64,000 nucleotides of DNA. It comes from Escherichia phage muut. Below the pieces are notes generated by a model. That model had not been told where the DNA came from and made no database searches. It saw nothing but the letters and a program-made list of their open reading frames with translations. The stretch lies in sequence record NC_052657.1. The stretch is one strand, 5' to 3'. Shown in pieces: positions 8,958 through 50,046 of the stretch; the stretch's first letter is position 1, and each line of letters begins with the position of its first letter. The position numbers and the translations under genes were made by a program.

Positions 8958-9388
8958 ATAAATTACTTCAGTGTTACCACAAAGTGACGAACTGCTTTTC
9001 GTGCAGCAGAAGCCAGAGGCTTAGCATACTTAAGTTCATCTTTTTCCATTATAAATTCTCTTTTAAATGAAAATGCAGGACTTATTGGCATTGCCTGCGC
9101 AAGCCCTCAAGGGGAACATAGGTTTTTGTATATTTAACGACCAGGATAACCATAAACCCGTCATCATTCACATTCAAGAGGTACACCATAAAACTGCCGG
9201 GGTCTTAAAACTATAATGATTCGCAAATCATTAATCAGACAGTTCGATGGCTCCTCGATTTTAGCTCACACTAAGGCAGTGAATCTCCAATAAACTAAAA
9301 AATCACTTAAAAAGAACCGCTAGAGTTTGAAGGAGAAAACCATGAGCGAAAAGAGAAATTTTCTCTAGCGATTCCATTTAAATAATCT

Positions 9389-9463
9389 TGGAGCGAGTAA
9401 CAGGACTTGAACCTGCACCTGGAGGGTGGAAACCTCATATGCTACCATTAACACTATACCCGC
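9389..9463 (-). tRNA. tRNA-Gly (anticodon UCC)
   Basis: 75 nt; anticodon loop TTTCCAC, T arm GCAGG-TTCAAGT-CCTGT, acceptor GCGGGTA/TACTCGC with one G-U, CCA. Confidence 0.6.
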
Positions 9464-9518
9464 TTAACAATATTACTCTAACATATTATTAGCCCCTTTG
9501 TCAAGAGGCTTTTAATAT

Positions 9519-9842
9519 TTATTTTAAAATAGTAGATGCACCACGTCTGTTTAGATATGCAACCGTAAAGCTCAAATCACCTATTTCTTCAGGTTCCCAC
9601 TGACCTTCTAAGCCATAACAAGAACAATGATATGCGTGTACTTCATAAAACAAAGATGTTTTCATATCATAGAAATAAACGTGAGATTCGCCTTCATAAT
9701 ATGCACAATCATAAGTGGCAGAAAGAATTACAATGTTATCCTTATCTAACTCTACTTCATAATATCTTTCAACATCTTCAATATCATCAAAACCATCGAA
9801 AACATTGATATTAAAATATTTCTCTAACTCTTTTTCTGTCAC
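9519..9842 (-). CDS. hypothetical protein (about 107 aa) embedded in tRNA array
   Basis: ORF between tRNA-Gly and tRNA-Thr; probable GTG start with AGGGGG RBS. Confidence 0.45.
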   Translation of the reverse strand: MTEKELEKYFNINVFDGFDDIEDVERYYEVELDKDNIVILSATYDCAYYEGESHVYFYDMKTSLFYEVHAYHCSCYGLEGQWEPEEIGDLSFTVAYLNRRGASTILK

Positions 9843-9865
9843 ATACACCCCCTTTAGAGTTAAAT

Positions 9866-9940
9866 TGGTGCTCCCACAAGGACTCGAACCTTGATAAGTT
9901 GCTTACAAGGCAACCGTAATAGCCGTTATACGATAGGAGC
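9866..9940 (-). tRNA. tRNA-Thr (anticodon UGU)
   Basis: 75 nt; anticodon arm GTTGC-CTTGTAA-GCAAC, T arm CAAGG-TTCGAGT-CCTTG, acceptor 7 bp with one G-U, CCA. Confidence 0.65.
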
Positions 9941-10019
9941 AAAATATTTGCTTGGTAGGATTTGATACCTACAATTCTAGAAAATTCTAGAGGTTTCTAT
10001 TAACTCTACAAGCACTATT

Positions 10020-10104
10020 TGGCGATGGATCAAGGATTTGAACCTTGCTAGAACTTTCGTTCACGGATTAACAGTCCGTCGCCCAACCACTAGGCCAATC
10101 CATC
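10020..10104 (-). tRNA. tRNA-Asn (anticodon GUU) with unusually long variable arm
   Basis: Exact acceptor GATGGAT/ATCCATC, CCA, discriminator G; anticodon arm ACGGA-CTGTTAA-TCCGT; 15-nt variable hairpin GAAC-GAAA-GTTC. Confidence 0.5.
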
Positions 10105-10111
10105 TTTAATT

Positions 10112-10198
10112 TGGTGCAGGTAGTTGGACTCGAACCAACGAAGCCCCGAAGGGCAGGAGATTTACAGTCTCCAGCAATTGCCGCTATGCGATACCTAC
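10112..10198 (-). tRNA. tRNA-Tyr (anticodon GUA)
   Basis: 87 nt type II; anticodon arm GGAGA-CTGTAAA-TCTCC, variable hairpin GCCC-TTCG-GGGC, T arm GTTGG-TTCGAGT-CCAAC, CCA. Confidence 0.7.
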
Positions 10199-10203
10199 GT
10201 GTT

Positions 10204-10278
10204 TGGTACATCGTGAAGGATTCGAACCTTCGACCTTGGAGTTAAAAGCCCTTGCTCTACCAACTAAGCTAACGATGT
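10204..10278 (-). tRNA. tRNA-Lys (anticodon UUU)
   Basis: 75 nt; exact acceptor ACATCGT/ACGATGT, D arm GCTT-AGTTGGTA-GAGC, loop CTTTTAA, T arm GAAGG-TTCGAAT-CCTTC; anticodon stem only 3 bp. Confidence 0.6.
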
Positions 10279-10406
10279 ATAAATTATCTTTAAAATAGCC
10301 AGTGTTTGCGGCACTGACTATGAGGTATCGGTAAAATGGCTGCCACCATCTGCCGAAAGTTTACTCTGCTAAAGTAAGTAGCCTCAACGCTACATTAAAG
10401 ATAACT

Positions 10407-10492
10407 TGGCGGTAGATGTAGGACTTGAACCTACACGCCGTTTCCGACGACAGTTTAGCAAACTGTTGTGGCTACCATTTCACCAATCTACC
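10407..10492 (-). tRNA. tRNA-Ser (anticodon GCU)
   Basis: 86 nt type II; exact acceptor GGTAGAT/ATCTACC, anticodon arm ACAGT-TTGCTAA-ACTGT, long variable arm, CCA. Confidence 0.7.
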
Positions 10493-10500
10493 GTTTTTAA

Positions 10501-10653
10501 TTATTCAAAACAACCGGAATCTTTTTGTTCTGCTTTTACCATACGAATATTTTTACCATCTTCAGATTGTTGAAGATTAGAATACTCATAAACAACTTTA
10601 TTATTTACAATCTTAACTCCGGTAACAACCTGTCCAATAGTTTTATAATTCAT
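10501..10653 (-). CDS. hypothetical protein (50 aa)
   Basis: Start moved to internal ATG (AGGAG RBS) because longer track ORF overlaps tRNA-Ser(UGA). Confidence 0.4.
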   Translation of the reverse strand: MNYKTIGQVVTGVKIVNNKVVYEYSNLQQSEDGKNIRMVKAEQKDSGCFE

Positions 10654-10671
10654 AAAGCTCCTAGTTGAATT

Positions 10672-10761
10672 TGGAGGAAGATAATGGAGTCGAACCATCA
10701 CCGTATCACTACAATGGGCCAGGGTTCAAACCTGGTTGCGCACCGCTGCGCCCTACCTTCC
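10672..10761 (-). tRNA. tRNA-Ser (anticodon UGA)
   Basis: 90 nt type II; acceptor GGAAGGT/ATCTTCC with one G-U, anticodon arm CCAGG-TTTGAAC-CCTGG, T arm GATGG-TTCGACT-CCATT, CCA. Confidence 0.65.
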
Positions 10762-10824
10762 CGTTATCATACTTTAAATCTAACATAAAACTATCTTGCT
10801 TGTCAAGCAGTTTTTAAAACTTTT

Positions 10825-10906
10825 TGGCCGGGGTGACAGGATTCGAACCTGCATACTCCAATTACTCGGTTAACGCCTGATTAGAAGTCAGGTGAGATAC
10901 ACCCCG
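10825..10906 (-). tRNA. tRNA-Arg-like (anticodon UCU), non-canonical arm order
   Basis: Exact acceptor CGGGGTG/CACCCCG, CCA, T arm GCAGG-TTCGAAT-CCTGT; UCU hairpin sits right after U8-A9 and a D-loop-like segment follows it. Confidence 0.4.
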
Positions 10907-10978
10907 TTTTCACAGTAACTATAACAAAAAACTAAGTAAATGTCAAGATATTTTTACTAAAAATATTATTTAAATTGA

Positions 10979-11084
10979 AGCCTAGTTATGGAATCGAACC
11001 ATATTTCGTATTTAGTTAGACAAAGCGGTCTAACATATTTTTCAGGCTTTGATGGCCTCGGAATTACCAAATACCCTACTAGGC
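10979..11084 (-). ncRNA. tRNA-like element, about 105 nt, with large insertion
   Basis: Exact acceptor GCCTAGT/ACTAGGC and T arm TATGG-TTCGATT-CCATA, no CCA; inner hairpins AGGC-CATCAAA-GCCT and GTTAGAC-CGCTTT-GTCTAAC. Confidence 0.3.
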
Positions 11085-11086
11085 GT

Positions 11087-11171
11087 TGGTGCAAGTGGAG
11101 GGATTCGAACCCTCAAGCATTTAAGCGTTGCGTTTTAAGCACAATGTGTATCACCAATTCCACCACACTTG
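11087..11171 (-). tRNA. tRNA-Leu (anticodon UAA)
   Basis: 85 nt type II; exact acceptor GCAAGTG/CACTTGC, anticodon arm TTGTG-CTTAAAA-CGCAA, T arm GAGGG-TTCGAAT-CCCTC, CCA. Confidence 0.65.
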
Positions 11172-11286
11172 CATATAGGAGATGCATAGCACCTCCTTTT
11201 AAATGGTGGTTCCCCAGGGTTACAATCCCTGCCCTCGACACTTATGAGGTGTGCGCTCTCGTCAGTGAGCTATGGAACCTTGAATA

Positions 11287-11582: not shown

Positions 11583-11612
11583 ATCTTAGCAAATAACTAG
11601 CTATGTTGTCAA
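11583..11612 (-). promoter_or_regulatory. sigma70-like promoter (TTGACA-18-TAAGAT) reading toward tRNA array
   Basis: Perfect -35 TTGACA and -10 TAAGAT on minus strand about 30 nt upstream of the RBS of gene 11287-11553. Confidence 0.5.
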
Positions 11613-24417: not shown

Positions 24418-25536
24418 ATTAGCGGTTACATTTTAATCCAACCGGAAGACCTGCACAAATATGTTGACGAGAACACAATTCTTGCAATAGACTACGATCA
24501 AGTGGCGTTCCAAGCATCTTCAGCTTTAGAGCAAAGAAAAATCCACGCTGTACACAAGGCTTCCGGTAATGTAAAAGAGTTTGAAACAAGAACAGATTTT
24601 TGGGGTAAATCTTCAAAAAATATTGGAGGATGGTTAGGAGCACTTAACGCGCAACGCGAAGCTGCTGGTAAGAAGTTGTTCTCCAAGGAAGATTTTGAAA
24701 TAAAAGATGTTCAAATAGTCCCAGAGAATATTTCTTTTACGTTTCAAGCTGCAAAGACAAAAATAACCCAGATGGTGGATCACCTAAAACTTCAAAAGTA
24801 TTGCGGTGTCATCGGGGTAGGAAAAACCTTCCGGCATTCTTTCAAAATGCCAAAAGAATATAAATCAGAACGATCAGATTTAAGACCAATCCAATTATCA
24901 GATACTAAAGATTATCTAGTTGAAAAACATAACGGTGACGTTGTTACTGGTATTGAGGCAGATGATGCTTTAGAAATCTATGGATATGCAGGGTATAAAG
25001 CCTACAAGGAAACTGGTAAGTTTTCTCATATTGTAGCATCTATCGACAAAGATAGCTTACACACACCAAGTTTACTCTTTAACTTTTATAAAGAGGATGG
25101 TGTTTATAAAAATCCTTGTGTTATTCTGATTGATGAATCTATCGGTGATATCTGGATCGTAGAAAAAGGTAAGAAAAAAGAAGTTAAGGGTTGGGGTAGT
25201 TACTGGTTAGCTTATCAAATGCTAATGGGCGATAAGACAGATAGTATTCGACCTTACCAAGATTTCGATGTTAAGTTTGGAGATATTACTTGCTTTAATC
25301 TTATTTCCAAATGTAAAACACAGGCTGAACTTTTTCAGACAGTTAAAGATCAGTATTATGAATGGTTCCCAGATGGCGTTAAATTTACTTCTTGGGATGG
25401 TGAAGAAGTAGAAATGACAACTGATGAATGGATAGAGACAATTTTTCAGTTGGTATATATGAAACGTTGGGCGAATGATGAAACAACTTTTGAAAGTATG
25501 CTACAAGCATATATTTCAGAGCAGGAGGAACATTGA
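24418..25536 (+). CDS. rnh: RNase H / 5-prime-3-prime flap exonuclease (T4 rnh-like); non-AUG start likely
   Basis: Motifs ILAIDYDQVAF, EADDALEIYG, SIDKDS, MGDKTDSIRP; conserved N-terminus lies upstream of first in-frame ATG/GTG. Confidence 0.65.
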   Translation: MSGYILIQPEDLHKYVDENTILAIDYDQVAFQASSALEQRKIHAVHKASGNVKEFETRTDFWGKSSKNIGGWLGALNAQREAAGKKLFSKEDFEIKDVQIVPENISFTFQAAKTKITQMVDHLKLQKYCGVIGVGKTFRHSFKMPKEYKSERSDLRPIQLSDTKDYLVEKHNGDVVTGIEADDALEIYGYAGYKAYKETGKFSHIVASIDKDSLHTPSLLFNFYKEDGVYKNPCVILIDESIGDIWIVEKGKKKEVKGWGSYWLAYQMLMGDKTDSIRPYQDFDVKFGDITCFNLISKCKTQAELFQTVKDQYYEWFPDGVKFTSWDGEEVEMTTDEWIETIFQLVYMKRWANDETTFESMLQAYISEQEEH

Positions 25537-28870: not shown

Positions 28871-29842
28871 ATGACAAACTCTATTTCAGCAAAAATTATT
28901 GCACACTCTCAAACATCTGAAGGTAAGGATATTGTTACCTTTGAACTTGAATATCCTCGAATCATTCACTCTGAATTGATGACGCATCGTTTGTTTTCTC
29001 GTAATGCCGCATCAAGTCGAGCTATCCCTGTTAAAACTCTAATTGAAATGGTACGGCAATCTCCCGCACGTCCTTATCGTTTTGGTGCTAACCAACCAGG
29101 TATGCAAGATAAAGGCACAGATCACGATGCCCTGATTGATGCAGGTTACACTGCAAAAGAATGGTGGGACTTGGCTGCGCTAAGTGCTGCACGTTTTGCA
29201 GAAGAGTTTGCCCTTGCTGGTTATCATAAACAGGTTGCAAACCGCCTACTAGAACCATTCCAGCGTATGAAGACTGTAGTAACCACTACAGAGCTAGAAA
29301 ACTTCTTGTGGTTGCGCGTAGATGCTGATGCAGATCCTACTATTGAGGCTCTTGCTAAAGAAATTAAAAAACTGTATGAATCTTCTGAACCATATCTTCT
29401 TTTCCCAGGGGAATGGCATACACCTTACGTTAATCGTGATCGAGATCCAGAAACTGGTATGATCCGTTATTTCTTGGGTGAAACCTTCTCCAACGAGAAA
29501 ATGTTGACAGAAGAGGAAGCAAAAGCTATTTCAGCTTCTTGTTGCGCTCAGGTAAGTTATCGTAAATTGAATGATACTAAAGATAAAGCATTGGATATCT
29601 ATTCTCGTTTGCTGTCTGGACAAAAGGTACATGCATCTCCGTTTGAACACCAGGCAACACCAATGAAAGAAATGGATTTGTCAGGATTAAAACAACAGAA
29701 AGGTGGTATTAATATTCCTCCGTTCCCTACTTCTTGGGAAGAAGGTATTACACACATGGATCGTAAACATCGTTTGTGGAGTGGAAACTTCTGTGGTTGG
29801 ATTCAACATCGTCAACTTTTGACTAACCATACAAAATGGTGA
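28871..29842 (+). CDS. thyX: flavin-dependent thymidylate synthase
   Basis: ThyX signature RHRLFSRNAASSRAIP (RHRxxSxxxxSxR). Confidence 0.85.
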   Translation: MTNSISAKIIAHSQTSEGKDIVTFELEYPRIIHSELMTHRLFSRNAASSRAIPVKTLIEMVRQSPARPYRFGANQPGMQDKGTDHDALIDAGYTAKEWWDLAALSAARFAEEFALAGYHKQVANRLLEPFQRMKTVVTTTELENFLWLRVDADADPTIEALAKEIKKLYESSEPYLLFPGEWHTPYVNRDRDPETGMIRYFLGETFSNEKMLTEEEAKAISASCCAQVSYRKLNDTKDKALDIYSRLLSGQKVHASPFEHQATPMKEMDLSGLKQQKGGINIPPFPTSWEEGITHMDRKHRLWSGNFCGWIQHRQLLTNHTKW

Positions 29843-34867: not shown

Positions 34868-35190
34868 GAGTTGATATTGCATGGCGTATGTTACAGGGTG
34901 CACCTTTTAATAAATGGGAAGAGGCTGTAGGAGAAGATCCTAGAATTGAAGAAGAATTTGATGGAGATTTTAATTGGTTCTTACAAGAAGGTCTTGATTT
35001 AAGCCGTATCTCACCTTTCTATGACGCTGATGCATCTTATTGCATATATGGGATTTATTTAGAAGGTGGCGAAGGAAGTATAGCTGTAGATCTTGAGCAA
35101 CTAAATAAGAATGCAAAAGAAGCCTACGCACAACTTCTTGAAAAATATAACATTGAAACGGAAACTATTATTTCTCAACACGTTTGGTAA
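34864..35190 (+). CDS. hypothetical protein (108 aa)
   Basis: Track ORF. Confidence 0.4.
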   Translation: MGVDIAWRMLQGAPFNKWEEAVGEDPRIEEEFDGDFNWFLQEGLDLSRISPFYDADASYCIYGIYLEGGEGSIAVDLEQLNKNAKEAYAQLLEKYNIETETIISQHVW

Positions 35191-35203
35191 GGAGGATAGT
35201 AGA

Positions 35204-35401
35204 ATGATGCTAGATCAACTGATCAATGCTCCTCGCGTAACAGTAAGTCCAAAAACATTTGCATCACTTTTAGAAGATGCTAGAGAGGTTTATAACTTTA
35301 CTGAAGAAGAGCTTCCTGTTCCTGTTAAAAAAGGTTCCAGATGGTTGTTTTATGAAGGTATTATTTTTACTGAAGGGAATAATTGGAAGGAGACTAAATG
35401 A
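35204..35401 (+). CDS. hypothetical protein (65 aa)
   Basis: Start reset to ATG 35204 (AAGGAGG RBS). Confidence 0.4.
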   Translation: MMLDQLINAPRVTVSPKTFASLLEDAREVYNFTEEELPVPVKKGSRWLFYEGIIFTEGNNWKETK

Positions 35402-36387
35402 AATACTTAGTAACAGGTGGTTTAGGCTTTATTGGAAGTGCGGTAGTTCGTTTCCTGGCTAAAAACACTAAGAATGATATTTACGTTATAGATAAATGGG
35501 GTTACGCTTCAGACCCTAGAAATTTATCAGAAACACCTAATGTAAAGTTTTGTCGTGTTGACTTGACAAATGCTCAGTTAACTGCTAAGATTGTGGCAGA
35601 TGTTAATCCAGATTATATAATGCATCTTGCAGCAGAAAGTCACGTAGATAATTCAATAGCATCACCGAGTGTTTTTATAAATTCAAATATTGTTGGAACA
35701 TTTAATCTTCTAGAAGCTGTTCGTTTAATGGGAGATAAATCAAATCTTAAAATGTTTCATCATATTTCAACAGATGAAGTGTATGGTGATCTGGAAGAAG
35801 GGGATTATCCGTTTACAGAACAGAATCCTTATAAGCCAAGTAGTCCATATGCTGCATCTAAGGCAGCAAGCGATCATTTGGTAAGAGCGTGGCATCGTAC
35901 TTATGGTATTCCGACAGTTATAACAAATTGTTCAAATAATTTTGGAGCGTATCATCATCCAGAAAAACTAATACCTAAAACGATAACAAATATTTTGATG
36001 CATAAACCAATCCCTGTTTATGGCAATGGTCTTCAAGTAAGAGATTGGTTATACGTTGACGATCACGCAGAAGCATTACACCTAGTAGTAACTAAAGGCA
36101 AATCTGGAGAAACATATAATATTGGGAGCAGAAACCCTAGAACTAATATTGATGTAATCTATATGATTTGTGATTATATGGATGCGGTGTATCCATCTGA
36201 AACAGATGCTTGTAGCCTCATTGAGATGGTTACAGATAGGCCTGGGCATGATTTAAGATATGAAGTGAATCCTTATAAGATTGAAAAGGAATTAGGGTGG
36301 AAAGCTAAAGGCACATTTGAAGAAAAACTTTATTCAACCATTGATTGGTATGTAGATAACAAAGAGTGGTGGGAAAATAAAGTTTAA
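35398..36387 (+). CDS. rmlB: dTDP-glucose 4,6-dehydratase
   Basis: GGLGFIGS Rossmann motif, [10 protein letters not shown] (YxxxK), [22 protein letters not shown]; collinear with E. coli RffG/RmlB. Confidence 0.9.
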
Positions 36388-36395
36388 GGAGGAGT

Positions 36396-37265
36396 ATGAA
36401 AGGTATTATCTTAGCAGGTGGTAGTGGAACAAGACTTTACCCAGTTACTAAAGGGGTTAGTAAACAACTATTACCAATTTACGATAAACCTATGATTTAT
36501 TATCCACTCTCTGTCCTAATGCTTTCTGGAATTAGGGAAATACTAATAATTACGACACCAGAAGATCAAATTAATTTTGTAAATCTTCTAGGTGATGGTT
36601 CTTCTTTTGGTATTTCCCTACAGTATGCAATACAGGACAACCCAAAAGGTTTAGCAGAAGCGTTTATTATTGGTGAGAGCTTTATTGGTGAAGATTCTGT
36701 AGCACTTGTTCTAGGTGATAATTTGTTCTTTGGTCAGAGTTTTGGTAGCATTTTAGATTCTGCTAAAGAACATATTGAAAAGAATGGTGGAGCTAATATT
36801 TTTGGGTATCACGTAAATGATCCTGAAAGATTTGGTGTTGTTGAGTTTGATTCTGAAGGTACAGTGGTAAGTATTGAAGAAAAACCAAAAGCACCAAAAA
36901 GCAATTATGCAATTACAGGCTTGTACTTTTACGATAATTCTGTTATACAGAAAGCTAAAAGCGTTAAACCTTCTGCTAGAGGGGAATTAGAGATCACAGA
37001 TATAAATGAGATGTACTGGAAAGAAAAGACTTTACGTGTCTGTAAACTAGGAAGAGGTTTCACTTGGCTGGATACAGGAACACATGAAAGTCTTATGGAA
37101 GCATCTCAATTTGTTCATGCAATAGAAAAGCAACAAGGTATGAAGGTTGCATGCCTGGAAGAGATTGCTTTTAAAAATGAATGGATTACTTTAGACTCTG
37201 TAAAAAGTTCTGGAGAGGTTTTAAGTAAAACAGACTACGGTAAGTATTTACTTAAATTAAAATAA
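36396..37265 (+). CDS. rmlA: glucose-1-phosphate thymidylyltransferase
   Basis: [17 protein letters not shown]...[17 protein letters not shown] nearly identical to RmlA N-terminus. Confidence 0.9.
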
Positions 37266-49476: not shown

Positions 49477-49499
49477 AGCCCCAAGCAGGGGCTTTATTT
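49477..49499 (+). terminator. hairpin with T-run (terminator and/or 5-prime-UTR stem-loop)
   Basis: AAGCCCC-aagca-GGGGCTT followed by TATTTG. Confidence 0.45.
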
Positions 49500-49512
49500 G
49501 TCTGGAGGATAT

Positions 49513-50046
49513 ATGGGTTTTGATGACATGTTATTATATGAGGAGGCTTGTGTGAAAGAAGCTATGGCTTTACCAGTTTTATCTATTGATATTACAACAG
49601 TAGACACTTTTTCAGATTGTGAAACGTGTGGATCGTATTCGTCTATTGTACATGAAGTTAGTGGGGATTTAGGCACTTACGAAGATGGAGATTATGCAAG
49701 TTGTTTAGGTGATAATCGAGATGGTGAAGTGGCGAATGTTGCAAACTGGATTGCTTCTAAGTTAAAAGAAAGAAATCGTCCGTTCCCTAATCTTCTTACA
49801 CCAGAAGCTATGCTTAAAGCTGAACAAGAGATGTATGATTATGGTTATAAAGTAGATTATGACTATAATGATCCTAAATATAAAAAATTGAGTGACAAGT
49901 ATTGGGAACTAGCTAATGCTTATGATAAATACTACTCTACAGAAAACATTGTTAAATTGTTTTTAGATTTTGGAGTAGAAATTAATTGGGATTTCGAAGA
50001 GGAAGAGCGTTACGACGCATCTTCTTGGGAGGACGAGGGTGAATGA
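49513..50046 (+). CDS. hypothetical acidic protein
   Basis: Start reset to ATG 49513 (GGAGGA RBS). Confidence 0.4.
   Translation: MGFDDMLLYEEACVKEAMALPVLSIDITTVDTFSDCETCGSYSSIVHEVSGDLGTYEDGDYASCLGDNRDGEVANVANWIASKLKERNRPFPNLLTPEAMLKAEQEMYDYGYKVDYDYNDPKYKKLSDKYWELANAYDKYYSTENIVKLFLDFGVEINWDFEEEERYDASSWEDEGE

Follow-up and report, generated by a model that had tools for sequence, protein, structure and literature searches.

A phage family of expanded tRNA-like genes represented in the tRNA array of Escherichia phage muut

What does Escherichia phage muut encode in the gap that standard tRNA finders leave in its transfer RNA (tRNA) array? We analyzed a stretch of 64,000 nucleotides (nt) from the sequence record of this phage (NC_052657.1), hereafter the window, in which an earlier note had marked a tRNA-like element of about 105 nt at 10979-11084. 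The note had left three options: a tRNA with an insertion, a suppressor-like tRNA, or a tRNA-like noncoding RNA. We find that the element is a minus-strand structured RNA gene under purifying selection. It is one of a family of expanded tRNA-like genes (100-110 nt) that is confined to phages and appears to be previously undescribed. The function that we favor for it, a reading that comes close to probable without reaching it, is that of an accessory, low-efficiency UGA-reading tRNA of the opal-suppressor type in a host with the standard genetic code.

All of the features described in the note are present on the minus strand, in a unit of 106 nt (Table 1). The acceptor strands GCCUAGU and ACUAGGC pair perfectly over 7 base pairs (bp), and the T arm is canonical. 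Between them lie a D-arm-like segment with one U.U mismatch, a 4-bp arm whose loop (CATCAAA in DNA letters) holds UCA in the anticodon position with A at position 33, and a perfect 7-bp hairpin. The acceptor stem, the T arm, and both inner helices (the 4-bp stem and the 7-bp hairpin) appear in the RNAfold centroid structure, and the minimum free energy is -28.8 kcal/mol (z = -2.7 relative to shuffles).

Default ARAGORN made no call at the locus, and neither did its mitochondrial and transfer-messenger RNA modes. Rfam gave no tRNA-clan match over 10979-11084, either at the gathering threshold or at E ≤ 10 with permissive filters; the element does not reach the gathering threshold of the canonical tRNA model RF00005 (29 bits), and the selenocysteine tRNA (tRNA-Sec) model RF01852 had no match at the locus even at E ≤ 10. 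When introns were allowed, ARAGORN returned tRNA-Asn(gtt) i(32,18) with termini at exactly 10979 and 11084 and an implausible internal model. Covariance models did not split the two ends between unrelated elements, and the termini belong to one unit.

A BLAST search with the element alone retrieved 32 copies from phi92-like phages (95-100% identity) and copies of about 70% identity from the Erwinia phages Hena1, pEp_SNUABM_01, and pEa_SNUABM_55, Klebsiella phage KPP-1, and the N4-like Salmonella phage UTK0002. With these relatives as queries, the gene was found throughout the Vequintavirinae: rV5 and FV3 (Vequintavirus), Avunavirus, Mydovirus, Seunavirus, and Henunavirus. A first pattern scan of viral contigs found only two lineages that were already known to carry it and chance matches in coding DNA; pattern scans also added further copies from IMG/VR and metagenomes. 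In total, well over a hundred sequenced phages carry the gene. A search of 185,579 bacterial and archaeal species, each represented by one genome, did not find the conserved 3' block, and a search for a host or donor origin found at most a 33-nt chance match in E. coli genomes. The family is thus restricted to phages.

A covariance model of the family (R1) scored members at 95-121 bits and ordinary tRNAs at no more than 27 bits across more than 200 kilobases (kb) of phage tRNA arrays, with one copy per genome. Class II tRNAs were the best matches outside the family. The window copy scored 101.3 bits (E = 9e-23), a value that is partly set by construction because this copy is in the seed alignment of R1; the 18 metagenome copies that were found independently scored 95-115 bits. 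In GenBank, members are labeled tRNA-sup(tca), tRNA-TERM, tRNA-Stop(tta), tRNA-Lys, tRNA-OTHER, tRNA-???(atcc), or hypothetical coding sequence, or they carry no label. The Hena1 homolog is annotated as tRNA-sup(tca), and independent annotators labeled the Erwinia-phage homologs suppressor tRNAs. The genome papers of rV5 and BME3 report six and sixteen tRNAs, respectively, and do not include the family gene. We found no description of the family in the searchable literature.

Comparison across the family shows that the fold itself is conserved. When 19 distinct copies were aligned with MAFFT, bases paired in 99.2% of stem cells, compared with 29-47% when the partners are slid by one to three columns (29-48% over both alignments). 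Double-sided changes occur in 10 of the 20 pairs, and none of 500 shuffles reached the observed covariation score. A model-based alignment of 28 distinct copies, which leans towards the model but agrees with the independent MAFFT result, gave 99.4% paired cells and double-sided changes in 11 of 19 pairs. The acceptor stem pairs in 100% of family cells, with compensatory changes in five of its seven pairs, and three of the four D-stem pairs covary. In the anticodon-like stem, two of four pairs covary (27:42 as A-U, G-C, or G.U and 30:39 as U-A, C-G, or A-U). In the T stem, pair 87:99 covaries (U-A or C-G), and the first pair is U-A in the window copy and G-C elsewhere.

Covariation extends to the tertiary structure. 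D loops with UUUGGCAA occur with the T loop UUCGAUU and those with UUUGUCAA occur with UUAGAUU, a change of G19:C56 to U19:A56 that is seen in five sequences. Because this pair at the elbow of the D and T loops covaries, the data indicate that the RNA would adopt a tRNA-like L shape. The common body opens with a 7-bp acceptor stem and A8, followed by a D stem of 4 bp that closes a UUUGGYAA loop and by an anticodon-like stem, also of 4 bp, between the invariant G26 and G44. An A-rich linker then leads to a hairpin whose sequence varies, and the xRAAUACAUA linker connects this hairpin to a canonical T arm. Every member has A8 and U14. The features that define the family (A8, U14-U15-U16, G26/G44, both linkers, the hairpin, and the T arm) are all found in the window copy.

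The extra hairpin occurs in 18 unrelated sequence versions of 4-7 bp, and 17 of the 18 close end to end better than shuffled sequences (P < 0.05). The linkers that flank it are conserved in sequence (AAAAUAx and xRAAUACAUA). Inspection of the sequences revealed no consistent covariation between the two linkers; pairing of the D-loop UUU with the AAAA of the 5' linker is possible, and both sides are invariant. The variable region is 40 nt in the window copy and 31-40 nt across the family. The note had described a 39-nt hairpin insertion. The hairpin is indeed there, within the variable region, but together with its linkers it constitutes an ancient, family-defining arm with compensatory changes across at least three phage families. 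Of the three options in the note, insertion into a standard tRNA can thus be set aside. The choice between a suppressor-like tRNA and a tRNA-like noncoding RNA sets a UCA loop kept in five lineages against the absence of a read-through target and several departures from core tRNA features. The resemblance to a tRNA is far beyond chance, and the element is neither a chance match nor a recently disrupted tRNA.

Members of the family differ in the loop of the anticodon-like arm. The loop [C/U]AUCAAA, with the triplet UCA, occurs in the phi92-like phages, Henunavirus, UTK0002, and two metagenomic lineages, together with U73 and, outside the phi92 group, CCA. It is invariant in these five lineages, which differ by about 30% elsewhere. 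The rV5 group has UUUUUAA (UUU) with A73, and Avunavirus has UUUAUAA (UAU) with C73 or U73 and no CCA; both of these are canonical U33/A37 loops. Mydovirus and Seunavirus have 8-nt loops, CC[A/C/U]UCCAG or CCAGCCAG (the xUCCx or xCC type), with U73-CCA. Most members encode U73-CCA, including Vequintavirinae and UTK0002 copies, and the discriminator partly follows the loop type.

We compared these combinations with the bacterial identity sets compiled in PMC9976931 (Table 1 of that paper), where Lys requires A73 and U34-U36, Gly requires U73 and C35-C36, and Cys requires U73, C3-G70, and G34-C35-A36. The Cys and Gly sets list U73 as the main discriminator determinant. The UUU type matches Lys, because A73 and UUU fit the Lys set; rV5 lacks any further tRNA-Lys. 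For the xCC type, the match to Gly is partial: its sole observed change at an anticodon position, U34 to G34, stays in the Gly box, and U73 is a Gly determinant. The UCA type partly matches Cys. When the extra region was removed and the body was scored for its nearest isotype, none stood out (best scores of 15-21 over 71 nt); tRNA-Cys came first only for the KPP-1 type. Redundancy of the loop triplet within genomes gave mixed results.

How would such an RNA work as a UGA reader? It would be the last gene of a transcription unit that comprises tRNA-Met, tRNA-Leu(UAA), and the element. RNase P would free its 5' end 2 nt after the CCA of tRNA-Leu. The 3' end would be trimmed exonucleolytically to U73 and completed by a CCA-adding enzyme, which would be needed because the window copy encodes UCA rather than CCA. 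In the mature RNA, a 7-nt loop would expose U34-C35-A36-A37-A38, and the extra arm would point outward from the variable region, like the corresponding arm of class II tRNAs. Our best guess for the charged amino acid is cysteine, because U73 is the main discriminator determinant in the Cys and Gly sets and the Cys set combines U73 and C3-G70 with C35 and A36. We favor a weak UGA reader because sister subtypes on the same chassis look like Lys and Ile(AUA) decoders, because U73-CCA is conserved, because the UCA-A37-A38 loop is invariant in five lineages, and because the arrays hold no other UGA reader: no canonical one was found in the tRNA arrays of carriers. The sequence A36-A37-A38 is the pattern of tRNAs that read U-starting codons (MiaA substrates).

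Several observations weigh against decoding. The anticodon stem has 4 bp instead of 5, A33 replaces the near-universal U33, and A8/U14 replaces the U8/A14 core pair. The 40-nt variable region includes conserved linkers of 8 and 11 nt, and we know of no precedent for such a region among decoding tRNAs. The Rfam tRNA and tRNA-Sec models are blank, as described above. The D stem has a U12.U23 mismatch that is specific to phi92-type copies, and the 3' tail in phi92-like copies is never an exact CCA (UCA, CCCG, or CCCA; UCA in the window copy). A canonical tRNA-Gly(UCC) is present alongside the xCC type in the same genomes, and in the 8-nt loops of this type the base before UCC varies freely among A, C, and U, which looks unlike a decoding loop. 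Lastly, phages that are 98% identical lack the gene entirely.

The search for UGA codons that might be read through adds to these points. On the coding strands of the 64-kb window (the genome is about 147 kb), we found no candidate in which one open reading frame (ORF) runs through TGA into another. A wider scan of segments from other UCA carriers found no TGA-specific excess, mainly neighboring genes that share a frame. TGA ends 16 of the 103 ORFs in the window (16%; for example, 24502-25536, 28871-29842, and 49498-50046). After these TGA codons, the next in-frame stop follows at a median of 2 codons, compared with 9 after TAA or TAG (P = 0.001). This back-up-stop signal was also present in a pooled analysis, but it was weak in Hena1, a similar trend appeared in KPP-1, counted here as a non-carrier, and it was not replicated in UTK0002, a second segment from the same genus, rV5, or T4. 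Separately, in JohannJBalmer, a phage of the same genus without the element, the DNA polymerase ORF (segment L063, 38796-42008, minus strand) ends in TGA and stays open in frame for 9 codons into the next ORF of 198 amino acids; chance frame-sharing or a read-through fusion is possible there.

The gene is accessory, because relatives that are 98% identical lack a 125-nt segment that spans it from its fourth position. Exactly 125 nt are missing in VivaForever, phiWec187, and about 20 other near-identical records, with TA microhomology at the junction, and about 20 of 51 near-full-length records align in two pieces with 85% query coverage. We infer that the gene is dispensable for the phage and that any benefit it brings would be conditional, such as one in host range or counter-defense.

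The strongest competing explanation, although we consider it somewhat unlikely, is that the RNA is a tRNA mimic that folds and is processed like a tRNA but does not decode. It would act as a decoy, sponge, or inhibitor of a tRNA-binding protein, for example a host anticodon nuclease or another tRNA-targeting defense, a modification enzyme, or a synthetase. The loop of each lineage would imitate the host tRNA that is targeted, with the extra arm either strengthening binding or blocking catalysis. Much of what disfavors decoding speaks for such a mimic: the 4-bp anticodon stem, A33, A8/U14, the 8-nt loops with their freely varying "33," the redundancy of the xCC type with canonical tRNA-Gly(UCC) in the same genomes, the lack of UGA read-through targets in the window and in segments of other UCA carriers, and the accessory status of the gene. 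The loop types include UUU, the anticodon of tRNA-Lys, and PARIS and a bacterial Schlafen have been reported to cleave or target tRNA-Lys(UUU) (PMC11464382; PMC13056530). Relatives of these phages, among them Vequintavirinae with the family gene, encode an RNA ligase, and KPP-1 also encodes a CCA tRNA nucleotidyltransferase (ligase and CCA-enzyme genes at 35173-36420 and 8410-9372 of KPP-1 segment L062 and at 3780-4715 of rV5 segment L059). These enzymes point to tRNA-damage pressure and are consistent with investment in tRNA maturation and repair. The orphan species 1 RNA of T4, discussed below, is similar in layout and is not known to decode. On the other hand, the conservation of U73-CCA and a discriminator that tracks the loop (A73 with UUU) are most simply explained by aminoacylation, and the anticodon loops of the UUU and UAU types are canonical throughout. 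The analysis found no protein partner for a mimic, and we know of no nuclease that targets a tRNA with a UCA anticodon.

A broader picture, which we regard as unlikely as a whole, is that of a modular phage tRNA chassis in which one conserved body, with its non-canonical core, 4-bp anticodon stem, and protruding fifth arm between conserved linkers, carries interchangeable loops (Lys UUU, Ile UAU, 8-nt Gly-like, and opal UCA). A phage or host factor would use the extra arm as a handle or identity element, or else the arm would shield the RNA from tRNA-targeting defenses. The UCA form would act in a standard-code host as a naturally occurring opal suppressor that may insert Cys, with conditional use in counter-defense or the reprogramming of termination, and T4 species 1 RNA, an orphan for 50 years, might be a degenerate relative.

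It is improbable that the family is functional elsewhere and that the copy in the phi92 lineage is a relic on its way to loss. The U12.U23 mismatch, the decay of CCA to UCA (CCCG or CCCA in sister phages), and the clean deletion of the gene in about 40% of near-identical relatives would fit such a relic. However, only 4 of 106 element columns vary within the phi92-like genus, compared with 12 of 26 in the adjacent spacer, roughly a 12-fold difference. Two of the four variable columns lie in the hairpin loop, and the other two turn Watson-Crick pairs into G.U, so that the only stem substitutions preserve pairing. Relative to other lineages, the acceptor, T, and hairpin stems of the window lineage have stayed perfect through several double, compensatory substitutions, and the loop is identical to that of four other lineages. 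Judged by its sequence, the window copy is maintained rather than decaying, because variation within the genus is low and changes in the stems preserve pairing. The 3' linker in the phi92 lineage is 1 nt longer than elsewhere and ends in ...ACGAAA instead of ...ACAUA.

The resemblance to a tRNA could be incidental if the locus were a plus-strand intrinsic terminator or encoded the 34-amino-acid protein of some records, but this can hardly be right. A plus-strand scan does flag 11015-11034, followed by ATATTTTTCA, as terminator-like, and cardinal and other records have a hypothetical coding sequence over the element. Neither explains the covariation in the four other stems and the 19:56 tertiary pair. 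No plus-strand gene converges on the site, and many hairpins of the family are weak (-1 to -4 kcal/mol) and followed by merely 4-5 U after a spacer; we rejected the terminator as contradicted by the family covariation. The small ORF was also rejected, as its frame is not conserved: it meets TGA after 9 codons in KPP-1, and the length of the hairpin varies by non-multiples of three. Scarcely credible, and rejected on comparative grounds, is the model behind the exact ARAGORN call, a tRNA-Asn(GUU) interrupted by an 18-nt anticodon-loop intron: its anticodon stem would have two mismatches, its GUU is part of the 5' side of the extra hairpin and does not occur in homologs such as those of Hena1, rV5, and KPP-1, covariation favors the AGGC/GCCU stem and the hairpin instead, and neither coliphages nor E. 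coli are known to have a system that would splice such an intron.

How does the element compare with known RNAs? Like the bacterial class II tRNAs (Leu, Ser, Tyr, and Sec), it is a cloverleaf with a paired arm between the anticodon stem and the T stem. Its extra region is 30-40 nt rather than about 10-24 nt, with conserved single-stranded linkers of 7-11 nt on both sides. It shares the UCA anticodon with tRNA-Sec, and its loop differs from the CUUCAAA of that tRNA only at position 33. In contrast to tRNA-Sec, its acceptor branch is 7/5 rather than 8/5, and its D arm has a 4-bp stem and an 8-nt loop rather than a 6-bp stem and a 4-nt loop. Further departures from class II tRNAs and tRNA-Sec are the discriminator U73 in place of A73 or G73, the 4-bp anticodon stem, A33, A8, and U14. 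With canonical elongator tRNAs (RF00005), the element shares the 7-bp acceptor stem with a single discriminator, the 5-bp T stem, the UUCRAnn loop, and the G19:C56 elbow; it differs from them in U8/A14, the 5-bp anticodon stem, U33, and the length of the variable region, and it scores below the 29-bit threshold.

The suppressor tRNAs of recoded phages (crAss-like and Lak-type) are likewise phage genes with a stop-complementary anticodon triplet in a standard-code host, and homologs in the family have been annotated as tRNA-Sup or tRNA-TERM. Those suppressors are canonical cloverleaves in phages with many in-frame stops in late genes, whereas the element is dispensable and non-canonical in its body, no in-frame TGA was found in the 64 kb, and TGA still serves as a stop. 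Phage tRNAs can also evade or neutralize defenses, as T5 tRNA-Lys does against PARIS and T5 tRNA-Tyr against retron Eco7 (PMC11464382, PMC11555353, PMC10264068). As in our family, these are accessory array genes in virulent coliphages with loops off the host consensus, and one family subtype has the targeted Lys UUU loop. Defense evasion would offer a plausible selective rationale for the unusual scaffold. The T5 tRNAs are otherwise canonical and demonstrably decode, with point changes in the loop, whereas the family alters the whole architecture and has no defense linked to it.

Among the RNAs we tested, T4 species 1 RNA (rnaC) is the closest architectural analog. This stable RNA lies at the distal end of a tRNA operon, a few nucleotides past the preceding RNA. 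Its ends form an acceptor-like stem, and its T arm (GGGUUCGAAUCCC) is canonical. Immediately before that arm comes a hairpin of 7-8 bp with a 6-nt loop, which follows a linker identical to that of the element (AAAAAUAU). Unlike the element, rnaC is 139 nt long, with a long irregular arm instead of D and anticodon arms, two U.U mismatches in the acceptor stem, and no CCA in its annotated end. On the T4 segment with rnaC and rnaD (L067, 2409-2672, minus strand), R1 scored rnaC at 9.4 bits (E = 0.27 over 6 kb) and gave no meaningful match to rnaD. This is a resemblance, and the R1 score does not support homology. Allo-tRNAs (PMC5389517) resemble the family in being non-canonical, with long variable arms and assorted anticodons that include stop readers, and in having been found beyond the standard models. 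They are bacterial and have a 12-bp acceptor branch (8/4 or 9/3); the family is 7/5 and phage-only and has much longer linkers. Overall, the element is most like a class II or selenocysteine-type tRNA with an opal anticodon, and by their defining features it is distinct from RF00005, RF01852, allo-tRNAs, and recoding suppressors.

The genomic setting is that of a tRNA gene. The source phage is a phi92-like Escherichia myovirus (Justusliebigvirus, Stephanstirmvirinae), and the first 20 kb of the window are 98-99% identical to ESCO9, PD06, cardinal, and phi92. ARAGORN and Rfam delimit a tRNA array at 8242-11279 on the minus strand, in which the element fills a gap. The 2-nt spacing that separates it from the CCA of the preceding tRNA is common to most members of the family. 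A promoter-like site upstream probably drives a unit consisting of a small ORF, tRNA-Met, tRNA-Leu, and the element, and a strong promoter-like site downstream may begin the next tRNA unit and set the 3' limit of this one (Table 1).

Table 1. The element and associated features (window coordinate = 11085 minus RNA position)
Feature	Window position	Strand	Basis or remark
Whole tRNA-like gene	10979..11084	-	106 nt including discriminator U73; matched by R1 (score in text); same termini with ARAGORN -i
Acceptor stem, 5' strand GCCUAGU	11078..11084	-	Perfect pairing with 10980-10986
Positions 8-9, AG	directly 5' of D arm	-	Read from sequence
D arm GGUA-UUUGGUAA-UUCC	11060..11075	-	4-bp stem, U12.U23 mismatch; loop with G18 G19, U14
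Invariant G26	11059	-	5' flank of anticodon-like stem
Anticodon-like arm AGGC-CAUCAAA-GCCU	11044..11058	-	4-bp stem, 7-nt loop
UCA triplet, positions 34-36	11050..11052	-	Read directly; A33 before, A37 A38 after
Invariant G44	11043	-	3' flank of anticodon-like stem
A-rich 5' linker AAAAAUAU	11035..11042	-	AAAA core in 28/28 distinct members
Extra (fifth) arm GUUAGAC-CGCUUU-GUCUAAC	11015..11034	-	Perfect 7-bp hairpin
3' linker UAAAUACGAAA	11004..11014	-	Family consensus xRAAUACAUA; AAUAC invariant in alignment
T arm UAUGG-UUCGAUU-CCAUA	10987..11003	-	Canonical T loop, 5-bp stem
Acceptor stem, 3' strand ACUAGGC	10980..10986	-	Family alignments
Discriminator U (U73)	10979	-	Read from sequence
3' tail UCA (CCA in relatives)	10976..10978	-	Sequence comparison
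125-nt segment (element from position 4 plus 22 nt of 3' spacer)	10957..11081	-	Absent from close relatives, clean alignment gap
tRNA-Leu(UAA) with encoded CCA	11087..11172	-	ARAGORN and Rfam (56 bits); element begins 2 nt downstream
Promoter-like TTGACA-18-TAAGAT	11583..11612	-	Consensus scan, 10/12 matches
Promoter-like TTGACA-17-TATAGT with TG	10918..10946	-	Consensus scan, 11/12 matches

Other tRNAs in the array are also unusual. In the neighboring tRNA at 10828-10906 (minus strand), which has its own strong promoter-like site at 10946..10918, the D arm is replaced by 4 nt, the loop is UCU (Arg), and the 20-nt variable region is itself D-arm-like (…GAGUAAUUGGAGU…). It scores 38.6 bits with the Rfam tRNA model, is missed by default ARAGORN, and is listed as tRNA-OTHER or tRNA-Undet in other records. 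The tRNA-Asn(GUU) at 10020-10104 (minus strand) is 85 nt long, and its long variable arm resembles that of class II tRNAs, an unusual feature in a tRNA-Asn. Three gaps in the array (8324-8404, 9947-10015, and 10324-10402, minus strand) are tRNA-sized and give low-score tRNA-like calls (22 bits with the tRNA-Sec model; Trp(cca), Arg(tct), and Ala(agc) with relaxed ARAGORN), and these may be further non-canonical tRNAs.

Arrays of other carriers gave similar observations. In UTK0002, ARAGORN calls a tRNA-Ser(UGA) (segment L006, 1410-1495) located 5 nt upstream of the family member, and both genes are unannotated in GenBank. Mydovirus and Seunavirus arrays contain odd tRNAs with 6-nt loops, to which ARAGORN assigns 2-base "anticodons" (2598-2672 and 928-997 in L030, 5383-5457 in L038, and 192-261 in L037), and one of these lies directly between tRNA-Thr and the family member. 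The records MG065639, MG065645, MG065656, and MG065689 and related ones ("Campylobacter phage A150, A145, C3, A110a") are 98.5% identical to phi92-like coliphages over 20 kb. Among the records labeled Campylobacter jejuni, others correspond to rV5-like phages. Most likely these host labels are incorrect, or else the sequences are contaminants.

The family is apparently an undescribed variant class of phage tRNA-like genes. Phage tRNAs are now seen as weapons against tRNA-cleaving defenses, and analyses of them rely on finders that miss this family. Its carriers include phages used in therapy and biocontrol research: rV5-like and phi92-like phages, Klebsiella Mydovirus, Salmonella and Cronobacter Seunavirus, and Erwinia Henunavirus. 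Phages that naturally carry or lack the element and are otherwise about 98% identical (over the 20 kb compared) lend themselves to a clean comparison. If the element does not decode, it would represent a new class of tRNA mimic with candidate roles in counter-defense. If it does decode, the known structural limits of a working tRNA would widen to include A33, an anticodon stem of only 4 bp, and a variable region of 40 nt. The element would then be a naturally occurring opal suppressor of enterobacterial phages and might offer a new scaffold for genetic-code engineering.

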